A DNA stretch of 64,000 nucleotides. Origin: Alistipes sp. GTDB taxonomy: Bacteria > Bacteroidota > Bacteroidia > Bacteroidales > Rikenellaceae. The position numbers and the translations under genes were made by a program. The stretch is from the NCBI GenBank assembly GCA_045637085.1, contig JAZTYW010000036.1, positions 51,220-115,219 on the forward strand, in the 5' to 3' direction. The notes beneath the pieces are model-generated. The model was not told the origin of the DNA. It was given only the letters and a program-made list of their open reading frames with translations, and did no database searches. Positions 26,307 to 36,125 of the stretch are shown piece by piece. Position 1 is the stretch's first letter; the number at the start of each line of letters is the position of its first letter.

Positions 26307-26444
26307 AATATTAGGATATGCTCGTTCTAACTCAAACCAATCGCCAGCATTTATAAGGCTCCCCACCATTACATCTTCTTGCTGAGCAAACACCGATGTA
26401 ATAGCAAAGGTTATTGAAAGTAGTGTGGCATAGAGTCTTTTTAT
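26307..26444 (-). pseudogene. Relic 5' end of a paralogue of the aspartyl protease gene
   Basis: Reads (ATA)KRLYATLLSITFAITSVFAQQEDVMVGSLINAGDWFELERAYPNI versus MKRLYATLLALTFALTSALAQQADMLVGRLINGGDWFELERVYPHI at 30134. Confidence 0.85.
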
Positions 26445-27742
26445 TCTTGTTTTAGAATTACACCTAACTTGATTTGAGTCTGATCACTTAACTTCTCTGT
26501 TATAAATGCATAAGTCCAAGGACTCATCACACAAGCTAAATTTGGGGTTATTTCAATTAATAGTTCATAATATGCCTCAGATACTTTTTCGAAATCGACT
26601 AAGTGTATGCTTTCAATACCAGAATTCTGGCTGCCATATGTAATTACTAACGACTGTTTCGTAAAATCTATATCTGGATAGCTGGCGTTATTCTCAGATT
26701 TGATATACTTACTTAGCTCCTCATCACTGTTAACAATGACTGCATCAACAATCTCGTCAAAATCATATGGGAAGTTCCACTCACATGATGTCCCTTCTAA
26801 TGAGTATTCAGTGTATGGTAAACTTGACATAACAGATGCATATTGCGTAGCCTCACCTTGCTTTGCTCCCTGAACAATAGTTATACAGCCAAACACATTG
26901 CCACACTGTACATCGATAATAGCAGTTCGTGGTTGTATGCTATTATTTCCATTAACAACAATTAGTATTTCATTAGGGCTGTCTTCAAGAACAGTCGCAC
27001 GATACCAACCTCCATCTACATCCATTCCATTATCAGAAGACCTAACATAGTTCACATATTCTGTGTTGCCATTTGCATCATCTACGACCTCATAACCACC
27101 TACTATAGATAGTTGATCGTAATTCTGTACAGTCACATTACACTCACCGCCCTCAGAAGGTATGTTAAATTCGGTTTCACTCAACTCTATGGGCTGCCAC
27201 TCCTCATCCACGCTATTACGCTTGAGTATGGTGCGCTGATTTTTATTATTATAAACTCTATCCGATATGATGTAGTCTTTGTTGTATCCTGAAACTATAT
27301 ACTCGGCATTATGCTCACCGCTTAATAAGAGTTTTCTATTTATTACATCATAACTCCAGTTAAATCTTATAGTATCTGGCTCCATTGTTTTTGGATCTAT
27401 ACAAAAACTAAAACCCGTAGCATCACCTTTGAAAGTGTATCTGTTATGCTGCAGCAATGGGGTATACTCTATACCCATAAACATATAAGGCATTATAATC
27501 TCTTGCCAATCCTCGTTGTATGCTAACTCAGAGTCCAGTGCCCACTCACCAGGTAAACCCTTAGTGACATCATTTGGCGCAAAGTCTTGACACTTCTCTA
27601 TTAATTCAGATACGACATCATTAATTTCGTTTAGATCAGCTTCGGGATTAGAGTGATTCTTGTGCCCACTCGAATTCTCGTTGTTGCATGCTGTGGATAA
27701 TGCCATGACTATTGCCATAAGGCAGTAAGTTAGTTTTTTCAT
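26441..27742 (-). CDS. Modular lipoprotein (lipocalin-like, BACON-like and C-terminal domains)
   Basis: Lipobox STAC; GLPGEW...WSYD domain; BACON-like PSEGGECNVTV...N...PRTAII.VQ...ITIVQG; C-terminal VNSDEEL...YPDIDFTKQSLV; visibly AT-rich. Confidence 0.7.
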   Translation of the reverse strand: MKKLTYCLMAIVMALSTACNNENSSGHKNHSNPEADLNEINDVVSELIEKCQDFAPNDVTKGLPGEWALDSELAYNEDWQEIIMPYMFMGIEYTPLLQHNRYTFKGDATGFSFCIDPKTMEPDTIRFNWSYDVINRKLLLSGEHNAEYIVSGYNKDYIISDRVYNNKNQRTILKRNSVDEEWQPIELSETEFNIPSEGGECNVTVQNYDQLSIVGGYEVVDDANGNTEYVNYVRSSDNGMDVDGGWYRATVLEDSPNEILIVVNGNNSIQPRTAIIDVQCGNVFGCITIVQGAKQGEATQYASVMSSLPYTEYSLEGTSCEWNFPYDFDEIVDAVIVNSDEELSKYIKSENNASYPDIDFTKQSLVITYGSQNSGIESIHLVDFEKVSEAYYELLIEITPNLACVMSPWTYAFITEKLSDQTQIKLGVILKQE

Positions 27743-27769
27743 AGGTGTTTATTTTTAAGTTGTATATGA

Positions 27770-28840
27770 TTATTTGATATGTTCTCGGAGGACTCTATCA
27801 ATGTTGTCACCGCGTAGGTTTCTCGCTACGAGTTTGCCCTCTGGCGAGTATAGGAAGTTAGCCGGAATACCATCAACATTAAACTCCTCGCCAGCCCTCC
27901 ACGAGCCATCCTCATCCGTGCCCCAGACATTTATCCATGTCATATTATTCTCCGCTATAAACTCTCTCCAGCGAGCCTCTGTGCCTGGGTAGTCGAACGA
28001 CACGCCATAAATCTCCAATCCCTGAGGTGCATACTTGGCATATGCCTCCACGAGGTAGGGTATCTCGCCACGACATGGACCACACCATGTAGCCCAAAAG
28101 TCGATGAGTACCCACTTGCCACTCTTGCATAGGTCCGACACGCGGATTACCTCGCCCTCGGCATTGGGTAGCGCAAGGTCGATAAGTTCCGCACCCACAA
28201 TCGTTGTCTTTAGGCTCTTATAGGACTTAAGTACGGCAAAGCGCCTATCAATCTTATTGAAGATGTTGGAAGCCACGGCATCATCGCCGCCAAAGTTAAT
28301 ATACGAAGAGAGCACGTTGAGTGACAATACACTATCCATATTGGCGTACATAAAGTCAACCATGTGTTGTAGAACTGCCTGATACTTAGCCTCGGCCTCC
28401 TCCTGGGTTGCCGAATTATAGATATTTGCAATCATAGTGGCAATATCGTTGCAGTATGCGCCCCACTTATCATTCAATGCCGAGCCAATAGGCATAAGCG
28501 TCTCATCCTTATATACAAAACTTACATCGCTGCCATCAGCAAGGCACCATGAGTGAACATCATCGTTGACAATGACATGGATACCATCTCCCTCGTATGT
28601 GTCAACTATTGTGAGAAACTTGCCGTTCTCGTCAATGCTAACTTCGGCGCTGCCCTCCTGCCACTCGATGGTTATGGAAGAGGGGATTTCAGCGAGTGCC
28701 GATAGGTCACCACTAATCTTGTTTGATATCGTGGTCGCCCCAGCCTCTTGCGCCGTCTCATTCTCAGCGCCCCTCTTTCCTCCGTTGGCGCATGCTGCAA
28801 GCATTGTCGCACAACATAAAAGTGCAAATAACCTCTTCAT
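27770..28840 (-). CDS. TlpA-family thiol:disulfide oxidoreductase lipoprotein
   Basis: Lipobox LAAC, LIDFWATWCGPCRGE, GIPANFL, NLRG; start MKRLFA. Confidence 0.9.
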   Translation of the reverse strand: MKRLFALLCCATMLAACANGGKRGAENETAQEAGATTISNKISGDLSALAEIPSSITIEWQEGSAEVSIDENGKFLTIVDTYEGDGIHVIVNDDVHSWCLADGSDVSFVYKDETLMPIGSALNDKWGAYCNDIATMIANIYNSATQEEAEAKYQAVLQHMVDFMYANMDSVLSLNVLSSYINFGGDDAVASNIFNKIDRRFAVLKSYKSLKTTIVGAELIDLALPNAEGEVIRVSDLCKSGKWVLIDFWATWCGPCRGEIPYLVEAYAKYAPQGLEIYGVSFDYPGTEARWREFIAENNMTWINVWGTDEDGSWRAGEEFNVDGIPANFLYSPEGKLVARNLRGDNIDRVLREHIK

Positions 28841-28856
28841 AAGTAAAATGTAATAT

Positions 28857-30134
28857 CTATTCAATCTTTACGAACATGTCATCAAAATTGAGCGTTACCC
28901 TCTCTACGCTCTTTAATAATCCCATTCCGAGGCTGCCATGATGGGGTGAAGTTACGATGTCGCCACTGGGGATGGTTGCTGGAGTGGCATGTAGCGTAAC
29001 TGCTCTATCCCCAATTCTCATTGTGTATTCGGGTACTCTGACTATCTGTTGCACTACGATGCCGCCATGTCCCCATGTGTTTTGTGTCTCAGTGGGGAGG
29101 GTGCTTAGTAATTCTCTATTCTTATCAAACCACAGGTCGAAAAAATCTGCGCCGCTATTACCCGTATCGAGGATAAATGTCATCCTATCGCCCCCTTCAT
29201 CAATAACCTCTATAATAGGAATATTCTGCTCAAGGAGAATATTCTTACCATATTCGGGTGCAGCGCTCTTCTTTGCGGGAATTCGCAATGTGTGATTTAC
29301 CATATCAATCTGAACCTCGCCAAGTCGCTTGATAAAGTCCATGCCGAGTACAGTATCTACCTTGAGTGGGTCACCCTCTGCGGAGTTCTCATTTACAAAG
29401 ACTAAGACATTCCTCAATGTAATTGGGCCTATATCCATCCTCTCTATAAGTGCTCGTTCAAGATAACCACCACCCGTCGCACCACCAACAAATATGGGCT
29501 CGCCAACGCTTTGTGCCCCTATCTCCGTCGCTATCTCCGAGGTTATCAGCGATGATGATGCTCCAGTGTCGAAGATAAAGTCGTATATCTTGCCATTTAT
29601 GCTCACGGGGAGCTTGATGTGCAGGCCCGAACTATCTGAAAAGCCTATCGTAACATCTGTGTCGGGCTTGTCAATCGTAGGTGCGGGTAGCTCGCGCACA
29701 GAGTCGTAGCACACCAACAACTCCTCAACACCCGTCTCCTCCAAAGAGCCAGTGGCAACCATGATAATATCTGCCATGCTCTTTACCATGTCGGCGGCAG
29801 CTCCGTAGTTGCCGTTAAAGTATTCTGCGGCAGCTCCGAGATTTATTAAGTTGCATACGCTCTCATAGCCCAACCTATCCTGATGCTCGGCAATGAGCTG
29901 TGGTAGCTTGTTGTTTAGCTCATCCCAACGGTTGAAGTTGTATGCAAGGAGCACCTCGGCCATCTGTTTCAACATTGGCGTCTGCACATCATCTTTAATA
30001 TGCGGATAAACCCTCTCAAGTTCAAACCAGTCACCACCATTTATGAGCCTTCCCACCAGCATATCTGCCTGTTGGGCTAATGCAGATGTGAGGGCAAATG
30101 TTAGTGCGAGGAGCGTGGCATAGAGGCGTTTCAT
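28857..30134 (-). CDS. Secreted two-domain retropepsin-like aspartyl protease
   Basis: Signal peptide; two catalytic motifs FIFDTGAS and FILDTGNS; VLGMDF and SLGMGL flaps. Confidence 0.88.
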   Translation of the reverse strand: MKRLYATLLALTFALTSALAQQADMLVGRLINGGDWFELERVYPHIKDDVQTPMLKQMAEVLLAYNFNRWDELNNKLPQLIAEHQDRLGYESVCNLINLGAAAEYFNGNYGAAADMVKSMADIIMVATGSLEETGVEELLVCYDSVRELPAPTIDKPDTDVTIGFSDSSGLHIKLPVSINGKIYDFIFDTGASSSLITSEIATEIGAQSVGEPIFVGGATGGGYLERALIERMDIGPITLRNVLVFVNENSAEGDPLKVDTVLGMDFIKRLGEVQIDMVNHTLRIPAKKSAAPEYGKNILLEQNIPIIEVIDEGGDRMTFILDTGNSGADFFDLWFDKNRELLSTLPTETQNTWGHGGIVVQQIVRVPEYTMRIGDRAVTLHATPATIPSGDIVTSPHHGSLGMGLLKSVERVTLNFDDMFVKIE

Positions 30135-30232
30135 ATCTACTTAAGTCTATTTATTTATACAAACGATTTACTATCTTGAAATGTTACATAGTGAGACCAT
30201 TTATTTTATCACGAAGTCAAATTTTTACGGTA

Positions 30233-30294
30233 CAAATTTACCCCCTCCATCAAATTCCCAAACTTTTGGTTAAGAAATTGATGGTAGGGGGTAA
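30233..30294 (-). promoter_or_regulatory. Promoter of the protease-TlpA-lipoprotein unit embedded in an inverted repeat
   Basis: TAAATTTG (-7, 30233-30240) and TTTG (-33, 30259-30262) on the minus strand; arms TTACCCCCT-CCATCAA and TTGATGGtAGGGGGTAA. Confidence 0.55.
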
Positions 30295-30359: not shown

Positions 30360-30809
30360 CTATGCCGCTTGTACGCCGCGCCAGACGGTCTCCCAATCCT
30401 CCCACTGCGACTCACTGAGGTTTGTCCACCAACACTTGCCCGTAGAGTCGAGCTTGGTGTTGTGGAACTTCTTCGCCTTAGATATCTGAAGCTTCACATC
30501 ACGCACCTCGCCAGTGTGGTTTGCGGGAACTTCAAACTCAATAACCATGGTGTTGTCATGCCTTTTCTTGGTTGTTTTATCTCCAATTTGTAGGCGGTAG
30601 CGGTAGCACTTATGCGTCTCGCCGGGTTGAAATCGCGTATTGTCTGTCCACCAGGTGTCGAAGTCGTCGAAGCAATATGTTCCGCCCTTCTGTGGTATCT
30701 GTACAACCTGTGAGTTGGGTATCGCATCCCAGTCGTAGTATTCTGTGCACGCGGTAAATGATACCAATGCCAACGCAACGGTTACAAGGTGTAAAAGAGG
30801 GCCTTTCAT
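30360..30809 (-). CDS. Hypothetical lipoprotein, last gene of the radical SAM operon
   Basis: Lipobox FTAC followed by TEYYDW; BACON-like VPANHTGEVR...VQ end. Confidence 0.75.
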   Translation of the reverse strand: MKGPLLHLVTVALALVSFTACTEYYDWDAIPNSQVVQIPQKGGTYCFDDFDTWWTDNTRFQPGETHKCYRYRLQIGDKTTKKRHDNTMVIEFEVPANHTGEVRDVKLQISKAKKFHNTKLDSTGKCWWTNLSESQWEDWETVWRGVQAA

Positions 30810-30820
30810 AGCATTTTGTG

Positions 30821-31897
30821 TTATTTTGTTAGGCGGTGGTAGTGGCAGACGAGCAGGTTTTCGTCATCGTCGTAGAGGTGCATGCCGCTGCCCTCGCAGT
30901 ATTGCCACATCTTGCAGTCGGCACACTTACCCTTCTTCGCCCATGCGCGGTTGCGGAACTTCTCGAAGCGGTTTTGCCAGACATCCCAGAAGTTATCTTT
31001 GTAGATGTTACCCTGCGTGAAGTTGGCGCGTACACTTGTGCAGCCCGAGATATCGCCATTGACACGTATCGAGGCGGTGCCGACACCTGCGTAGCACTCG
31101 AAGGGGTTGGTGCGCACGCGCATCTCATAGCCCGCGAGGAAACCTTCGCAGCCATATGCGGCCTTTACGCGACCCTCCTTACGGCACTTCTCGATAAACT
31201 CCATAAGGTAGGTGAACTCCTCGTTGTTGAGCTGCAGCGTGGGGTCGGTTGCGGCGCGGCCTACGGGGAAGATGGTGAACAGTCGCCAACGGCGCACACC
31301 GAGTGAGTAGAGGAACTCCTTGAACTCCTCAAGGCGTGGCAGGAGCGCGGGGGTTACGCATGTCACGACATCCGAGGCAAGCTCCTTATCTGCCGATATC
31401 ATGCGCACAGCCTCCACGGCGCGTGCGAAGCTCTCCTTGTTCTGGCGTATGTGGTAGTGGTGCTCCTCGAAGCCGTCGAGCGAGACGGTGATTGAGTGCA
31501 GACCCGCGCGGATAAGTGAGTCTAAACGCTGACGTGAGAGTCCCAAACCGTTTGTCACCATGCCCCAGGGGTAGCCGCGGCGGTAGAGGTTGATGCCTAT
31601 CTCCTCGAGGTCCTTGCGCACGAGCACCTCGCCACCCGAGAGGATGATAAGGACCTTATGTGGGTCGACGTTTGGTGTAATCTCGTTGTCCAGCACGCGG
31701 AAGAAATCCTTTGCGGGCATATCCGTGAGCGTGGTATCCACCTTGCAGTCGCTACCGCAGTGGCGGCACTGGAGGTTACAGCGCAGTGTGCACTCCCAAA
31801 AGAGAGTATTTAATACATGCTCGTCGCGGCGTATCTGACGTAACTTTTTGAATAGCTTCAACGCCATCCACTGGCGTAGTCCAAGTCGTTTTCCCAT
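30821..31897 (-). CDS. Radical SAM/SPASM maturase, rSAM/lipoprotein-system type (TIGR04133-like)
   Basis: FWECTLRCNLQCRHCGSDC, SGGE, WGMVTNG, SLDG, WRLFTIFPVGRA, SPASM CYAG...NGDISGC...CADCKMWQYC...C. Confidence 0.85.
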   Translation of the reverse strand: MGKRLGLRQWMALKLFKKLRQIRRDEHVLNTLFWECTLRCNLQCRHCGSDCKVDTTLTDMPAKDFFRVLDNEITPNVDPHKVLIILSGGEVLVRKDLEEIGINLYRRGYPWGMVTNGLGLSRQRLDSLIRAGLHSITVSLDGFEEHHYHIRQNKESFARAVEAVRMISADKELASDVVTCVTPALLPRLEEFKEFLYSLGVRRWRLFTIFPVGRAATDPTLQLNNEEFTYLMEFIEKCRKEGRVKAAYGCEGFLAGYEMRVRTNPFECYAGVGTASIRVNGDISGCTSVRANFTQGNIYKDNFWDVWQNRFEKFRNRAWAKKGKCADCKMWQYCEGSGMHLYDDDENLLVCHYHRLTK

Positions 31898-31903
31898 AGT
31901 ATC

Positions 31904-32089
31904 TTATTCGTTTTGTATGTCGTTGTTAGCCTCCTCTGCGAGGGCCTCCTCAGCTGGTGCCTTCTCGCTATACTCCTCATGTAGGGGTGCATAGGCAGGT
32001 GCGGGGTATATCTGCTGGTCGCCCTCGGGCTCACAACTTACGAATGTATAGCCTAACGCTACTAATCCAAAGAGAATCAATCGTTTCAT
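31904..32089 (-). CDS. 61-aa lipopeptide, candidate radical SAM substrate
   Basis: MKRLILFGLVALGYTFVSC lipoprotein signal, then EPEGDQQIYPAPAYAPLHEEY and an acidic tail; tightly packed between two rSAM genes. Confidence 0.75.
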   Translation of the reverse strand: MKRLILFGLVALGYTFVSCEPEGDQQIYPAPAYAPLHEEYSEKAPAEEALAEEANNDIQNE

Positions 32090-32108
32090 AGTTCGTATAG
32101 TTTAAGGT

Positions 32109-33137
32109 TTATAAATCTAATATAGGGTCGGCAATGTCGAACGTTCCGTATAGCTGCTCCGAGGCGGCACGGCAGCCACCACGGCAGCGCTGCCACAGGT
32201 CACACGCTACGCATCGCTCGGGCATGGTGTTATAGATACCCTCCTCTGTTGTACGCTTGAGGATGTCATCGAGGTGCTCCTTGTGTATGTTGCCCAGCAC
32301 GCGGGGCGAGTGGTTGCAGAAGCGCACATCGCCACGGTAGTTGATGGTCAACGGACGCGAGGTAAGCTCCGTTGTGCAGTGCGTAAATGTTATGTTGGGG
32401 TAGTCGCGCGGCTCGAGCACACATAGCGGCGTGCATACGCCATTGTGGGCACGCATGCCCAACTCACCAAGTTTGGCATCGGCACGACGAAAGGCATCGC
32501 GCAACTCCGCATGCGAGAGTGTCAACTCCGCGGCATACTTACGCCCCAAGCCACCGATATTGAAGCGGTTAAGCATTATCCTTTTGACCCCCATCGCGGC
32601 GTACATCTCCAGCGTAGGCTCTATATCGTTGACATTCAAACGGCTGAGGATGAATACAGGAGTTAGCCATGCGGGGTCCACCTCCGCGATGCGCTTGGCA
32701 CTCGCCATAGCGCGCTCCCATGAGCCCTCAAGCTGCGTTATGTGGTCGTGCACCTCGGCACGGTGCGAGAGAAGCGGTATCTGTACCACGCCAACACCGA
32801 GGTTACGGATGATGTCTATGTCCTCAGCCTTGAGTAGCGTGCCGTTTGTGAGGAGGTTTACGTTAGACCCTCCGAGGCGCGCCTTGAGTATAAGGTCGTG
32901 GATGCGTGGCATAAGCATAGGCTCGCCACCCGAGAAGGATATGCTACCGATGTTGGCCTCGTTTAGCAGGCGCTTCAGCGTGCGGCGTGCCATGCGGAAG
33001 TCGGGCGCAGCAACCGAGCATGGCTCAGCCCCACCCTTGAAGTGGTTATAGCAGAATCTGCACGCCTGGTTACAAGCATCCGTAAGCTCAAAGACCGCAA
33101 AGCCGAGCTCCACCTTTTTTCGTCGCGAGAAGAGCAT
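32109..33137 (-). CDS. Second radical SAM/SPASM enzyme
   Basis: FELTDACNQACRFCYN, SGGEP, LLTNG, SPASM C...INYRGDVRFC...CVACDLWQRCRGGC. Confidence 0.88.
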   Translation of the reverse strand: MLFSRRKKVELGFAVFELTDACNQACRFCYNHFKGGAEPCSVAAPDFRMARRTLKRLLNEANIGSISFSGGEPMLMPRIHDLILKARLGGSNVNLLTNGTLLKAEDIDIIRNLGVGVVQIPLLSHRAEVHDHITQLEGSWERAMASAKRIAEVDPAWLTPVFILSRLNVNDIEPTLEMYAAMGVKRIMLNRFNIGGLGRKYAAELTLSHAELRDAFRRADAKLGELGMRAHNGVCTPLCVLEPRDYPNITFTHCTTELTSRPLTINYRGDVRFCNHSPRVLGNIHKEHLDDILKRTTEEGIYNTMPERCVACDLWQRCRGGCRAASEQLYGTFDIADPILDL

Positions 33138-33140
33138 AAC

Positions 33141-33653
33141 TTAGTCAACTATAGCGATATAGATATGGAGACGCTGGGGCTCAATATCGCCCTCATAGAC
33201 CACATACTCTGCACACAACTTCGCTCTACCGCGATAGTCGCCTGCATCGATAGTGAATTCCAACTGATTGTCACCCTGCTTTACTGCGTAAGTCTTACTG
33301 CAAAGCACCCTTTCAGGCTCATTGTCATCACTAACCAACGATAATGTCACCTCCTCACCAAATATACATTCGTAGTTCAATATCACAATGTCGCCATTAC
33401 GCAACTCGCTATTTACGACACCGTCAGACCAATAGTGGTGATTTGATGGGGGTGGCGCAGGGTCGTAGCATGATGTAATAAATCCGCCACCTTCGCAGGC
33501 TGTCGATGCCAATGCCGTAAGGCCAATCAGCATACCACCCAAACGGTACTTAAGGTTTGTGGCGCGCTTGCTACGGCCACCGCTCAATATGAGCCACAAC
33601 GACACAGCAGCGAATGCCACGCTCAGTGCCACTATAAGAATTGTTCGTTTCAT
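33141..33653 (-). CDS. Membrane/lipoprotein with extended leader and SCYDPAP motif
   Basis: Two hydrophobic segments separated by a basic linker, lipobox-like STAC, then GGGFITSCYDPAPPP and a beta-rich domain; 3 bp upstream of the rSAM gene. Confidence 0.7.
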   Translation of the reverse strand: MKRTILIVALSVAFAAVSLWLILSGGRSKRATNLKYRLGGMLIGLTALASTACEGGGFITSCYDPAPPPSNHHYWSDGVVNSELRNGDIVILNYECIFGEEVTLSLVSDDNEPERVLCSKTYAVKQGDNQLEFTIDAGDYRGRAKLCAEYVVYEGDIEPQRLHIYIAIVD

Positions 33654-33671
33654 AGTATTAAGTTTTTAATT

Positions 33672-33836
33672 CGTCATTGCGAGAGCCTTTAGGCTCGTGG
33701 CAATCTCATTCACGTTGTATGTCATGCTGAGCGAAAGCGAAGGATCTATACGGGATAGCACAGTAGTCGAACGTTAGTACATACCGAGAGATTCTTCACT
33801 TCGTTCAGAATGACATAGATAGCGTTCAGAATGACA
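33672..33836. repeat. REP-like palindromic element, copy 2
   Basis: CGTCATTGCGAG..GTGGCAATCTC; TGTCATGCTGAGCGAAAGCGAAGGATCT paired with AGATTCTTCACTTCGTTCAGAATGACA; extra partial CGTTCAGAATGACA. Confidence 0.8.
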
Positions 33837-33855
33837 ACCACTCTGCCTATACTAA

Positions 33856-34212
33856 TTACTTGCGCTTGAGTCTAACATCGCCGAGGTCAACACCATCGAG
33901 TGTGGCATCGTTGCAATTTAGGTCAATGGACTGTTGCTCAAACTCTCCTCCATTCTCCGCGCCATCAACATCGGTGAACTCCACTGAGGGTATCTCGCCG
34001 CGGATGAAGAAGCGTCCATCGCTGTCTGTGTAGCACTCCGAGCTGTTGGTGTTCACCTTGATGCCCTCGATTGCTGTGCCCAACTCATCGACCACGCGTC
34101 CTGTTGCGCTAAATCGGGGGTTGTACTCGGTGTACTCTACGCCATAGCACGCCACGCAAGTGAGTGTCATGCCAAATAGCGCAAATAGTCGTGTTAATAA
34201 CTTGCCAGTCAT
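33856..34212 (-). CDS. rSAM-associated lipoprotein paralogue 4 (TIGR04134-like)
   Basis: LTCVACYGVEY; GRVVDELG.AIEGIKV; FTDVDGAENGGEF; DLGDVRLK. Confidence 0.8.
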   Translation of the reverse strand: MTGKLLTRLFALFGMTLTCVACYGVEYTEYNPRFSATGRVVDELGTAIEGIKVNTNSSECYTDSDGRFFIRGEIPSVEFTDVDGAENGGEFEQQSIDLNCNDATLDGVDLGDVRLKRK

Positions 34213-34230
34213 AATATTACGATTTTATTA

Positions 34231-34492
34231 GTCATTGCGAAGAATTGCATCTGCTTACCGCGCTGATACGCAAATCTTTTCATGCAATTCTGTGGCAATC
34301 TCCTCGCTGTGCTTAGTCATCCTGAGCAGCGCGAAGGATCTCCTCCAAGCCGACCAGAAACAACTTTGATCGCATATTGTCCGCGAGGGGATTCTTCACT
34401 TCGTTCAGAATGACATTCTAAGTATTACTAATTGCTAATTACTCATTACTAATTATTTAAGATCCCCACAGTCACTGTCCCTCCTCGGAGTG
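34231..34492. repeat. REP-like palindromic element, copy 3, with heptamer array
   Basis: GTCATTGCGA..GTGGCAATCTC; GTCATCCTGAGCAGCGCGAAGGATCTC paired with GGGATTCTTCACTTCGTTCAGAATGACA; (CTAATTr)n-like run 34423-34455; decayed half-site 34461-34492. Confidence 0.8.
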
Positions 34493-34493
34493 T

Positions 34494-34952
34494 TTACTCC
34501 TCGGGGGTTTCGTCAGGGGTCTCCTCGCTCTTCTTCTTGAGTTTCATAGTCACGGTGCCCAAGTCGGCGGTGTAGGCGCCCTCATACCAGTTGCCACTGC
34601 CCTCCTCAGTCTGTGTAGCGTTCTCTATATCCATGGTGAGCGTCTCGAACTCACCGCCATTGGCCTCGCCATCTATGTCGATAAACTGCACCTTGCCTTG
34701 CTCCGTTCCTGGCCAGAAGCTACCTCGTGCATCAATATAGCCCTGATAGTCCGAGAAGCCCGTGTTGTACTCGAAGCGTCCGCCCTCCTCGGTGCGCACC
34801 TCGATACCCTGAATGGGTGCGCCCGCCTCATCCACAACGCGCGCCTTGAGCGAGAAGCTAACATTGGGACAGCCATACTCCGCAGCACCAATAAAATGCT
34901 CGCAGCTTGTAAGGCCAAGCAGGCCTAATAGTATATAAATCAGTCGTTTCAT
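34494..34952 (-). CDS. rSAM-associated lipoprotein paralogue 3 (TIGR04134-like)
   Basis: Lipobox LTSC, AAEYGCP, ARVVDEAGAPIQGIEV, FIDIDGEANGGEF, DLGTVTMKLK. Confidence 0.85.
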   Translation of the reverse strand: MKRLIYILLGLLGLTSCEHFIGAAEYGCPNVSFSLKARVVDEAGAPIQGIEVRTEEGGRFEYNTGFSDYQGYIDARGSFWPGTEQGKVQFIDIDGEANGGEFETLTMDIENATQTEEGSGNWYEGAYTADLGTVTMKLKKKSEETPDETPEE

Positions 34953-34975
34953 TGCATATAAGGTTTTACAGGTTA

Positions 34976-35389
34976 TTACTTAAGCGTCATCACCACATCG
35001 CCGAGGTCTACCACATCGCTACCGACATAGCCCCACTCGTCGGGTTTGTTATTGAGGCCTGCGAGCTGCTCGCGGATGTTAACCGTGATGGTCTCGTACT
35101 CGCCACCATTGTATTCACCGTCAATATCCTCAAACACAATATTATGCAACTCGCTGGGGTGGAGGTGTGCAAAGCCCGAAATCACACCCTGATAGTCGCT
35201 ATATCCCGAGCGGCCATAGAAGGCACTCGTCTCGGGGTATGAGTAGATGCCCTGAATGGGGTTGCCCGCCTCATCTACCACATGTGCCGAGAAGTAGAGC
35301 ACATAGTATGACCTATGCTTTGGCTCCTTCTCGCACGACGACAATGCCAAGCCACACAGCACCATCGCCAAAAGTATCAATCGTTTCAT
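34976..35389 (-). CDS. rSAM-associated lipoprotein paralogue 2
   Basis: Lipobox LSSC, HRSYYV, AHVVDEAGNPIQGI, FEDIDGEYNGGEY, DLGDVVMTLK. Confidence 0.8.
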   Translation of the reverse strand: MKRLILLAMVLCGLALSSCEKEPKHRSYYVLYFSAHVVDEAGNPIQGIYSYPETSAFYGRSGYSDYQGVISGFAHLHPSELHNIVFEDIDGEYNGGEYETITVNIREQLAGLNNKPDEWGYVGSDVVDLGDVVMTLK

Positions 35390-35410
35390 CGCTATACTAT
35401 ATTTATATTA

Positions 35411-35800
35411 TTACTCCCTCTTTTTGAGAGTTACATCAATCGAGAGAATGCCATCCTCTTCAACATCCGCCTTTCTCGCATCGCTCATCTTGATACTCTT
35501 GTTGATAAATTCACCACCATTTGCCTCGCCATCGACATCCGTAAACTTGAACATATTAATATTTGGATGCTCATCGAGCGACACGCTACAAAAGCCATTC
35601 TCATCAGTATATCCCGCCGACGTAAACTCCCAGTTCTCTCTTACCGACACCTCGATGCCAGCAATGGGGTTACCCTCTTGGTCAACCACGCGAGCATCTG
35701 CCCTGTAAACCCTAATCAATGGTCCATACATCACAGGCATATCTTCAACTGTACAACTAAAACCGAGTGCCGCAATCAATAGATAAATTAGCTTTTTCAT
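35411..35800 (-). CDS. rSAM-associated lipoprotein paralogue 1 (TIGR04134-like)
   Basis: Start MKKLIYL, lipobox GFSC, MPVMYGP, ARVVDQEGNPIAGIEV, FTDVDGEANGGEF. Confidence 0.85.
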   Translation of the reverse strand: MKKLIYLLIAALGFSCTVEDMPVMYGPLIRVYRADARVVDQEGNPIAGIEVSVRENWEFTSAGYTDENGFCSVSLDEHPNINMFKFTDVDGEANGGEFINKSIKMSDARKADVEEDGILSIDVTLKKRE

Positions 35801-35853
35801 AGTTCGATATTTTATTTGTTTAAATGACTCCCAGAATAGGTATTTTCCTACTG

Positions 35854-35861
35854 CAAATTTA
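35854..35861 (-). promoter_or_regulatory. -7 promoter box of the rSAM/lipoprotein operon
   Basis: TAAATTTG on the minus strand, about 55 bp upstream of the ATG at 35800. Confidence 0.6.
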
Positions 35862-36125
35862 CGAAACAATATAGCCTTCACCAAATTTTTTGACCGAAAT
35901 TATTTCCGCACCCCGCCCTTTAAGATATTGATACTCAGATAGATACAAAAGCCAATTTTGCGAATTTTTCATCTTGCTGATTATCAGGCAGTTACAAATA
36001 TGATACGTGAAACTTTATAACTCATTGATAATCAACATTGTTTTTCGTTGATTAATTTATTTAGGTTTGGCGCGACGCTATTCGCAAAAAAAGAGTTACC
36101 TTTGCTACAAAACACAAAGATATCT

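Follow-up and report, generated by a model that had tools for sequence, protein, structure and literature searches.

A radical SAM/SPASM operon of Alistipes that likely merges two tyrosine-motif lipoprotein modules

Spliceotide systems, of which PlpX/PlpY/PlpA represents type I and the binary RhaX, RcsX and RasX systems represent type II, combine a radical S-adenosylmethionine (rSAM)/SPASM enzyme with a precursor carrying an X-Tyr-Gly (XYG) site in which X is variable. The same combination is found in the first of two modules of an operon from Alistipes sp., located on the minus strand at positions 30360–35861 of a 64,000-nucleotide stretch of DNA (contig JAZTYW010000036.1, positions 51,220–115,219; the whole stretch is called the window below). 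The operon encodes two rSAM/SPASM enzymes, rSAM-1 and rSAM-2, and seven other proteins or peptides. PlpX itself we take to be a member of family TIGR04103. A 2022 survey of spliceotides is said to distinguish types I to V and to list 27 validated pairs, its set covering 189 genera; its tables may include members of TIGR04133, the family of rSAM-1, in which case the first module would already be known. Spliceotide precursors are Nif11, NHLP or DUF1843 peptides, whereas the candidate precursors in the operon are lipoproteins with a signal peptide and folded domains. The enzymes differ as well: rSAM-1 is about 25–29% identical to the splicease families, forms a sister clade only, has one SPASM cysteine fewer, and its activity is a predicted one. 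Like the operon, the binary systems have no separate recognition element (RRE) for peptides that are ribosomally synthesised and modified after translation (RiPPs) and possess a helical N-terminal leader, according to the available parts of three reports (PMC11414181, PMC11626197, PMC11002830). In these same parts, the PlpX family is given as IPR026482 (PMC11002830), and XYG splicing and the helix-mediated activation of binary spliceases by the leader are described (PMC11414181).

In NCBIfam, rSAM-1 and the lipoproteins upstream of it fall into a catalogued pair of hypothetical equivalogs, TIGR04133 (rSAM_w_lipo) and TIGR04134 (lipo_with_rSAM), to which no function was found assigned. Compared with the usual pair, the operon contains four TIGR04134-type paralogs and a domain-less peptide stub, and is joined to a second, unrelated module. 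The lone mention of TIGR04134 that was found concerns type IX secretion and, judging from the available part of that paper, appears unrelated (PMC11611037). Neither module is described in the full-text literature searched, to which the tables of the 2022 survey did not belong. As in RiPP gene clusters, the precursors would have a conserved leader and a short conserved core. Unlike in those clusters, and as the original prediction had it, no Pfam or NCBIfam match to a leader peptidase, ABC exporter or PqqD/RRE protein is present among the nine proteins, structure-based RRE detection lying outside this search.

The explanation we favour, with moderate confidence, is that the operon contains two separable modules, in which rSAM-1 acts on Tyr-Gly (YG) sites and rSAM-2 on Cys-Tyr (CY) sites, giving membrane-tethered modified proteins. 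rSAM-1 would excise tyramine at the XYG site of the lipoproteins lipo1, lipo3 and lipo4, and rSAM-2 would alter Cys62-Tyr63 of the protein encoded just upstream of it, the CY protein. Enzymes dependent on Fe-S clusters and S-adenosylmethionine are expected in the cytoplasm; neither of the two has a hydrophobic N-terminus or signal peptide, while the partners are exported, so modification would precede or accompany export. The signal region may double as the leader, and along a Sec/Lgt/LspA route the signal peptidase and Lgt would replace leader peptidase and exporter. This use of the signal peptide, part of the original prediction, is plausible and gains indirect support: the signal regions keep motifs across unrelated scaffolds and are the sole conserved N-terminal handle, and a leader helix activates binary spliceases in the available text of PMC11414181. 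In the models of the CY protein and of lipo3, both motifs are located in tethers outside the folded domains. The sequence data show the gene content, the family assignments, the conservation of the motifs, the co-occurrence and the tree positions; the enzyme-substrate binding, both chemistries, the timing, the export route and a protease-inhibitor role are what we infer.

If true, this would be a way of editing envelope proteins, and gut commensals would display ketoamide groups, which are known protease-inhibitor pharmacophores, on membrane-anchored proteins. A wider picture can be drawn only tentatively: Bacteroidales might possess a portable, signal-guided editing of envelope proteins, consisting of ketoamide splicing by TIGR04133 enzymes in lipoprotein tethers (in a large subfamily on the anchor cysteine itself) and a new Cys-Tyr reaction by the rSAM-2 family on any exported protein with the extended leader, be it Ig-like, TonB-C or a bare peptide; one Alistipes branch would have merged both in a single shuffling cassette. 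New here are a specific predicted chemistry for a catalogued pair, an uncatalogued second family with a clear target motif, and their apparent lineage-specific merger. The locus is also a handy test bed, as the two enzymes are found here together with candidates for natural positives and with natural negative controls.

The Tyr-Gly module and rSAM-1

rSAM-1 (358 amino acids, positions 30821–31897) is a radical SAM/SPASM enzyme scoring 571.9 bits against TIGR04133, for a cut-off of 425. The four lipoproteins at the start of the operon are paralogs, as had been predicted, with 30–45% identity to each other. Two of them exceed the TIGR04134 cut-off of 39.8 bits in the NCBIfam profile search: lipo1 (129 amino acids, 35411–35800, 53.1 bits), containing Cys16 and the sequence Met24-Tyr25-Gly26-Pro, and lipo3 (152 amino acids, 34494–34952, 82.5 bits), containing Cys17 and Glu25-Tyr26-Gly27-Cys-Pro. 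These scores support the TIGR04133/TIGR04134 identification of the original prediction. lipo4 (118 amino acids, 33856–34212), with Cys22-Tyr23-Gly24, is slightly under the cut-off at 34.7 bits, and lipo2 (137 amino acids, 34976–35389), with Ser-Tyr-Tyr-Val in place of YG, scores 26.8 bits, though all four are homologous. By their motif, lipo1, lipo3 and lipo4, the co-encoded proteins with an XYG site, are likely substrates of rSAM-1; in lipo4, the predicted lipid-anchor cysteine is itself the X of XYG. In the AlphaFold2 model of lipo3, the YG site is located in a low-confidence tether ahead of a beta-sandwich. Fold searches with lipo3 returned generic transthyretin/CnaB-like matches only; overall, fold searches gave generic beta-sandwiches with a TM-score to the query of at most 0.45.

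TIGR04133-like genes are present in 74 of the 301 genomes sampled from the order Bacteroidales and in 138 of the 201 genus genomes, that is, in about a quarter and two thirds of them, yet no chemistry was found assigned to the family; a copy above the cut-off is found in Bacteroides thetaiotaomicron, which also has TIGR04134 above its cut-off. The neighbourhood set comprised 72 loci, made up of 70 of 88 places (30 as loci, 40 mostly from the lower-scoring end) and two plasmid records. At 60 of these 72 loci a neighbouring gene encodes a lipobox protein whose cysteine has a YG no more than 45 residues away, against 26 of 285 background lipobox open reading frames (ORFs). Among the 12 misses, one is the locus of the window itself, for which the flank covered was 1.5 kb, contig ends truncate two more, and four have YG neighbours that fail the filter: a lipoprotein whose C-terminus contains three YGxP repeats, two peptides lacking a signal, and a protein with YG directly after a signal that is not of the lipobox kind. 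The other five have no YG neighbour. When the 63 distinct YG lipoproteins beside TIGR04133-like genes are compared, proline is present at +2 in 85–97%, and in 29 the tyrosine follows the lipobox cysteine directly, as in lipo4. Their scaffolds differ, and include a beta-sandwich, a helical protein of 89 amino acids, peptides of 62–75 amino acids and a lipopeptide of 108 amino acids. A signal-region motif is shared by 27 of 34 YG partners and 33 of 285 background sequences, the motif having been defined after viewing and the rows being partly homologous.

A second TIGR04133 gene is present elsewhere in the genome (contig C33, 55175–56619), and upstream of it a 108-amino-acid lipopeptide is encoded that contains MLMYGVP and has no TIGR04134 domain. 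At two other loci (L155, 2539–2751, and L157, 1387–1668) the TIGR04133 genes have acidic YG peptides as neighbours in which a signal peptide is lacking, and this suggests that some leaders are not signals. Outside Bacteroidota, a deep-branching enzyme of the TIGR04133 clade (L239, 3–1836, genome G347) has a neighbouring protein with seven YGPxP repeats.

The 61-amino-acid lipopeptide encoded between the two enzymes (31904–32089, no family above cut-off) consists of a signal and a core without a folded domain, and contains Tyr33-Ala-Pro, which is invariant in the 15 aligned members of a cluster of 54; Tyr28 is not invariant. Its orthologs read AYGP, EYGP or EYGV, making the window's peptide a Gly-to-Ala variant and a possible substrate of rSAM-1. 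Three other loci (L018, L019 and L184) also contain YA variants. The gene is missing from many close strains. Where a short peptide gene is present between the enzymes (31898–32109 in the window), rSAM-2 is 342–343 amino acids long, and where it is missing, mostly 346–348; from this difference, the last codons of rSAM-2 appear to be substituted by the stub cassette.

Placement of rSAM-1 relative to the spliceases

Trees were calculated with FastTree from 169 rSAM/SPASM rows and with IQ-TREE from 46 chosen rows; PlpX and the validated spliceases stand outside both. The rSAM-1 clade is sister to, and not nested in, a clade of 17 reference rows of TIGR04103 and TIGR03913 type (FastTree 99, IQ-TREE 87/86). 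This reference clade includes one Nostoc TIGR04103 member and one Azospirillum TIGR03913 member, whose neighbouring precursors carry LYG. Two signatures, both picked after the alignment had been viewed, are confined to the two clades: CxxxCxHCG[SA] occurs in 41 of 42 TIGR04133-clade rows, 13 of the 17 reference rows and none of 107 others, and Gx[IV]x[GA]Cx[SN] in 40, 12 and none of the same rows. Because YG lipoproteins on unrelated scaffolds are paired with the enzyme and the clade is sister to the spliceases, tyramine excision at YG, for which a mass change of −135.07 Da is predicted, is our best guess for rSAM-1 and one we regard as rather probable from the sequences. The enzyme likely works like a splicease, its membership of that group being short of established.

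Several results weigh against this assignment. rSAM-1 is far under the splicease cut-offs, with 96.5 of 725 bits for TIGR04103 and 91 of 591.75 bits for TIGR03913. Among the 17 reference rows, just two score above the cut-off of a splicease family, no validated splicease is in the tree, and the sister branch, at 87/86, is unstarred in IQ-TREE. The fourth cysteine of Cx2Cx5Cx3C is present in all 17 splicease-clade rows and in none of the 42 TIGR04133-clade rows. In profile scores, rSAM-1 is just slightly nearer to the splicease clade than to heme/siroheme enzymes (Ahb/NirJ), with medians of 173 and 148 bits, and in the reverse direction the values are 220 and 210 bits. Finally, there are the five of 72 loci without a YG neighbour. 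The different SPASM cysteines, the sister position, the poor separation from Ahb/NirJ and the YA variants, conserved in the stub and found at the three loci named above, would also suit a pairing that is right with a different tyrosine chemistry, be it a cross-link, Calpha-Cbeta scission, epimerisation or a glycyl-type reaction. We think this unlikely, as the variable-X XYG sites, the repeated cores and the two exclusive signatures fit the splicease pattern.

Further away still, and very improbable in our judgement, is that the products of the enzymes are a small-molecule cofactor or a modified lipid or heme, with the lipoproteins binding or displaying the product and the motifs being binding sites. 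Ahb, NirJ, MftC and PqqE are indeed among the next-best profile hidden Markov model matches, and rSAM-2 groups weakly with PqqE (87/68), but the motifs recur on unrelated scaffolds, bare peptides, tandem repeats and unstructured tethers, and the loci viewed have no further conserved genes of a pathway. In three other genomes (G343, G344 and G347), many rSAM enzymes of the splicease clade are under the cut-offs, and several of them form tandem pairs (L198, L219, L222, L228, L205, L206, L215 and L220).

The Cys-Tyr module and rSAM-2

The CY protein (170 amino acids, 33141–33653, no family above cut-off) contains the lipobox Cys53 and the sequence Cys62-Tyr63, and is the likely substrate of rSAM-2 (342 amino acids, 32109–33137, Radical_SAM and SPASM domains), whose gene starts 3 nt past it. 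Its model comprises two helices (residues 2–23 and 29–51), a loose coil tether with Cys62-Tyr63 and an immunoglobulin (Ig)-like domain (residues 72–168); the leader motif K-x-x-x-G, with the leader residues Lys35 and Gly39, is located within the two-helix N-terminus. Clustered at 50%, the CY family comprises 733 representatives. The window protein was aligned with 131 of the best 150, the 19 left out being mostly long, multi-domain, truncated or extended proteins, plus the top match. The only columns invariant in all 132 sequences, which have 13–51% identity to the window protein, are Gly39, Cys62 and Tyr63, a result biased by a profile that itself contains the motif. The lipobox cysteine is less than 90% conserved in this alignment, so Cys-Tyr is better kept.

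In the 301 order genomes, an evenly drawn sample, 17 rSAM-2 homologs are found, 16 when its own copy is excluded. A CY protein is encoded upstream of 12 of the 16, and a contig end truncates the locus of another; for the remaining three, which include a partial gene, no CY partner is present within 12–14 kb. At loci from similarity searches, which include many close strains, the partner is present at 46 of 55 (44 by script, two on inspection); among the other nine, seven are cut upstream, one has a partner fragment and one, a homolog with 29% identity, has no partner. A motif K-hydrophobic-x-hydrophobic-G, defined after viewing, is located in the extended signal region of 28 of 40 dereplicated partners and in 21 of 1565 genome ORFs. 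The scaffolds that carry CY are Ig-like, TonB_C or CarboxypepD domains or bare peptides, and the motif is often repeated. The residue after the tyrosine is Asp in 23, Glu in 12, Ala in five and Lys in four of 58 cases; the partner of a Clostridia rSAM-2 homolog reads ICYG. Longer CY-protein fusions were looked for and not found at E ≤ 1e-4, a negative of little weight, and a weak match to NF058595 (invert_tail) is present in three of 21 family members, with a best E of 4e-4.

At five loci (L056, L265, L267, L269 and L270) proteins with TonB C-terminal domains, one of them also with CarboxypepD, contain the CY motif together with its leader, which suggests from the sequence that TonB-like periplasmic proteins may be modified via this module. 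The most RiPP-like form of the CY module is an array of 12 short lipopeptide-like genes upstream of another rSAM-2 homolog (L058, 2540–6038), at least nine of which contain one to three Cys-Tyr sites.

The second maturase had been predicted to be uncatalogued, and rSAM-2 does pass the cut-off of none of its 25 best NCBIfam families (GeoRSP 110.6 of 400 bits, PqqE 89.6 of 381); against TIGR04133 it scores 51.3 bits, under the 425 required. It is 24% identical to rSAM-1, and sequence searches of the PDB find distant rSAM enzymes only. In IQ-TREE, it forms its own clade (100/99), and its weak grouping is with PqqE. A splicease activity, earlier put forward as a lead, is supported for rSAM-1 by its YG pairing, trees and signatures. 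For rSAM-2 it is not: placing it in the clade of spliceases and TIGR04133 is rejected by the approximately unbiased (AU) test (p-AU 0.0116), and the splicease signatures are present in none of 20 rows. A relation to anaerobic sulfatase maturases had been named as a possible refutation; TIGR03942 is outside the 25 best families of either enzyme, and these maturases are distant in trees and profile scores.

For rSAM-2 we weakly commit to a thioether cross-link from the cysteine sulphur to the tyrosine, with a mass change of −2 Da, which must be called tentative. It is proposed because an invariant cysteine that is not the anchor is the usual mark of thioether chemistry. Other SPASM enzymes are known to act on a cysteine of a neighbouring protein, namely QhpD on QhpC, CrpC on CrpA/B (PMC13692751, in the available part) and anSME on sulfatases, and tyrosine-directed or adjacent-residue cross-links resembling the rSAM-2 site are formed by PqqE (Glu-Tyr C-C link), RrrB (Arg-Tyr) and TqqB (adjacent Thr-Gln ether), according to the available text of PMC9389541. 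The likeness has limits. QhpD and CrpC have an RRE and Cys-x-x-acceptor sites, whereas rSAM-2 has no RRE match and an adjacent Cys-Tyr. PqqE is among its nearest named families, yet the identity is about 26%, the tree support weak and the motif different, and no PqqA- or PqqD-like genes are present here. Three points weigh against the proposal: three of the 16 homologs have no CY partner in range; TqqB, the adjacent-residue precedent, refuses cysteine in the text available (PMC9389541); and rSAM-2 has eight conserved cysteines in the SPASM region, which may leave no open iron site, where the thioether-forming QhpD and CteB have seven (available part of PMC10352776).

Chemistries other than the thioether are, when summed, more likely than it, and come close to an even chance: rSAM-2 might convert the cysteine to an aldehyde, in the manner of formylglycine formation, or perform a new cut or rearrangement at the tyrosine beside it. 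The eight SPASM-region cysteines are the number of a fully ligated anSME, and the ICYG partner and the variable residue after the tyrosine would suit these routes. On the other hand, the tree position of rSAM-2 is remote from anSME, as is its profile score (median 47.5 bits), and lies outside both the anSME and the ranthisynthase parts; CYDP differs from the sulfatase modification motif CxPxR, and placement with the spliceases is rejected. rSAM-2 defines a family of its own, whose target is sharply set at two residues and whose leader is transferable; it is a good candidate both for a tool to tag proteins and for radical chemistry of a new kind.

Joining of the modules and organisation of the operon

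In the genus, rSAM-2 is present in 23 of 201 genomes; judged by eye, 19 of these have it no more than about 3 kb from a TIGR04133 gene, three have the two genes apart, and one could not be assigned. In the 16 other genomes of the order it is never adjacent to a TIGR04133 gene. The joined loci vary in gene order, lipoprotein number and insertions of unrelated lipoproteins. The operon is likely a lineage-specific merger of two modules, with about four to five substrates and not seven. Against full separability, a TIGR04133-like gene is present in 13 of the 16 other rSAM-2 genomes, either on a different contig or at a distance of 1.6 Mb, for a base rate of 24% (Fisher p about 1e-6, ignoring kinship and genome size), and the modules may not be functionally independent.

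The original prediction had seven substrates in common for the two enzymes. That both act on one such diversified pool, perhaps sequentially at one site such as the Cys-Tyr-Gly of lipo4, which has CY as well as YG, agrees with the single conserved promoter, the joining in 19 of 23 genus genomes and the genome co-occurrence, and is nonetheless improbable. The two enzymes differ in motif and are mostly found without one another, many TIGR04133 genes with no rSAM-2 in the fetched flanks have a C-Y-G lipoprotein next to them, and lipo4 has no K-x-x-x-G leader. Neither motif is present in lipo2 or in the last lipoprotein, which has EYYD, and these two are likely unmodified companions. Orthologs of lipo2 keep YY without Gly at eight loci (L009, L022, L024, L031, L034, L035, L037 and L038) and have YYG at L018. 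A YG-less TIGR04134-like paralog of this type is retained in most joined operons viewed, perhaps as a structural partner or an unmodified decoy. The last lipoprotein (149 amino acids, 30360–30809, no family above cut-off) has no YG or CY in its tether and is mostly unlinked: 12 matches to it are found in 10 genus genomes, three of which adjoin a TIGR04133 gene, six are on contigs without one and three could not be assigned. It is a passenger gene, one of the inserted unrelated lipoproteins. A paralog on contig C32 is about 250 nt from the contig end.

Reading of the sequence and ORFs confirmed the nine co-oriented minus-strand genes, the lipoboxes (judged by reading together with a pattern filter) and the promoter box of the original prediction. 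Its statement that every non-enzyme gene has a tyrosine within 15 residues after a lipobox-like cysteine is true of all seven; 90 of the 285 lipobox ORFs in the genome share it, so this feature is no marker of substrates, while YG within 20 residues occurs in just six of the 285. The closest relatives of the locus are labelled Alistipes.

The promoter (35854–35885, minus strand) consists of TAAATTTG at 35861–35854 and TTTG 20 nt upstream, at 35885–35882. The 8-mer TAAATTTG alone is frequent, with 0.89 occurrences per kb across the genome, and the two-part element TTTG-N20-TAAATTTG, which is of the Bacteroidetes promoter type, is found upstream of the operon in all eight related loci checked. 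The TTG start chosen by the ORF finder for lipo1 (35884) falls within this promoter, and the ATG start was used instead, giving 35411–35800. Scans of the region for sigma-70 promoters and terminators gave chance-level results. Contigs from gut-metatranscriptome RNA runs span most of the operon; they are short pieces of related strains, may stem from DNA and, as an uncontrolled comparison, show neither expression nor co-transcription.

Intergenic gaps are 3–23 nt long, save two of 281 and 202 nt, each of which contains a palindromic insertion resembling repetitive extragenic palindromic (REP) elements. The first, between lipo3 and lipo4 (34213–34493), folds into a long hairpin and has 74 blastn matches in the genome, and the second, between lipo4 and the CY gene (33654–33855), has 48. 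They have one exact 27-mer in common, of which eight exact copies exist genome-wide. No Rfam family was found for these elements, a single below-threshold chance match being returned. Relatives mostly have a gap of about 20 nt where the insertions are located here, and other strains show joints skipping the insertion at 34213–34493. The insertions could alter transcript stability or read-through.

Downstream of the operon, a run of genes on the same strand (26441–30262) encodes a protein with an aspartyl-protease domain, a TlpA-like thioredoxin and a lipoprotein of 433 amino acids; it is not conserved beside the operon in relatives. The aspartyl-protease gene (28857–30134) was considered as a leader peptidase and rejected, as a separate promoter element precedes it and relatives have different genes downstream of the operon. 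The promoter element of this run, at 30262–30233, is located within a strong hairpin.

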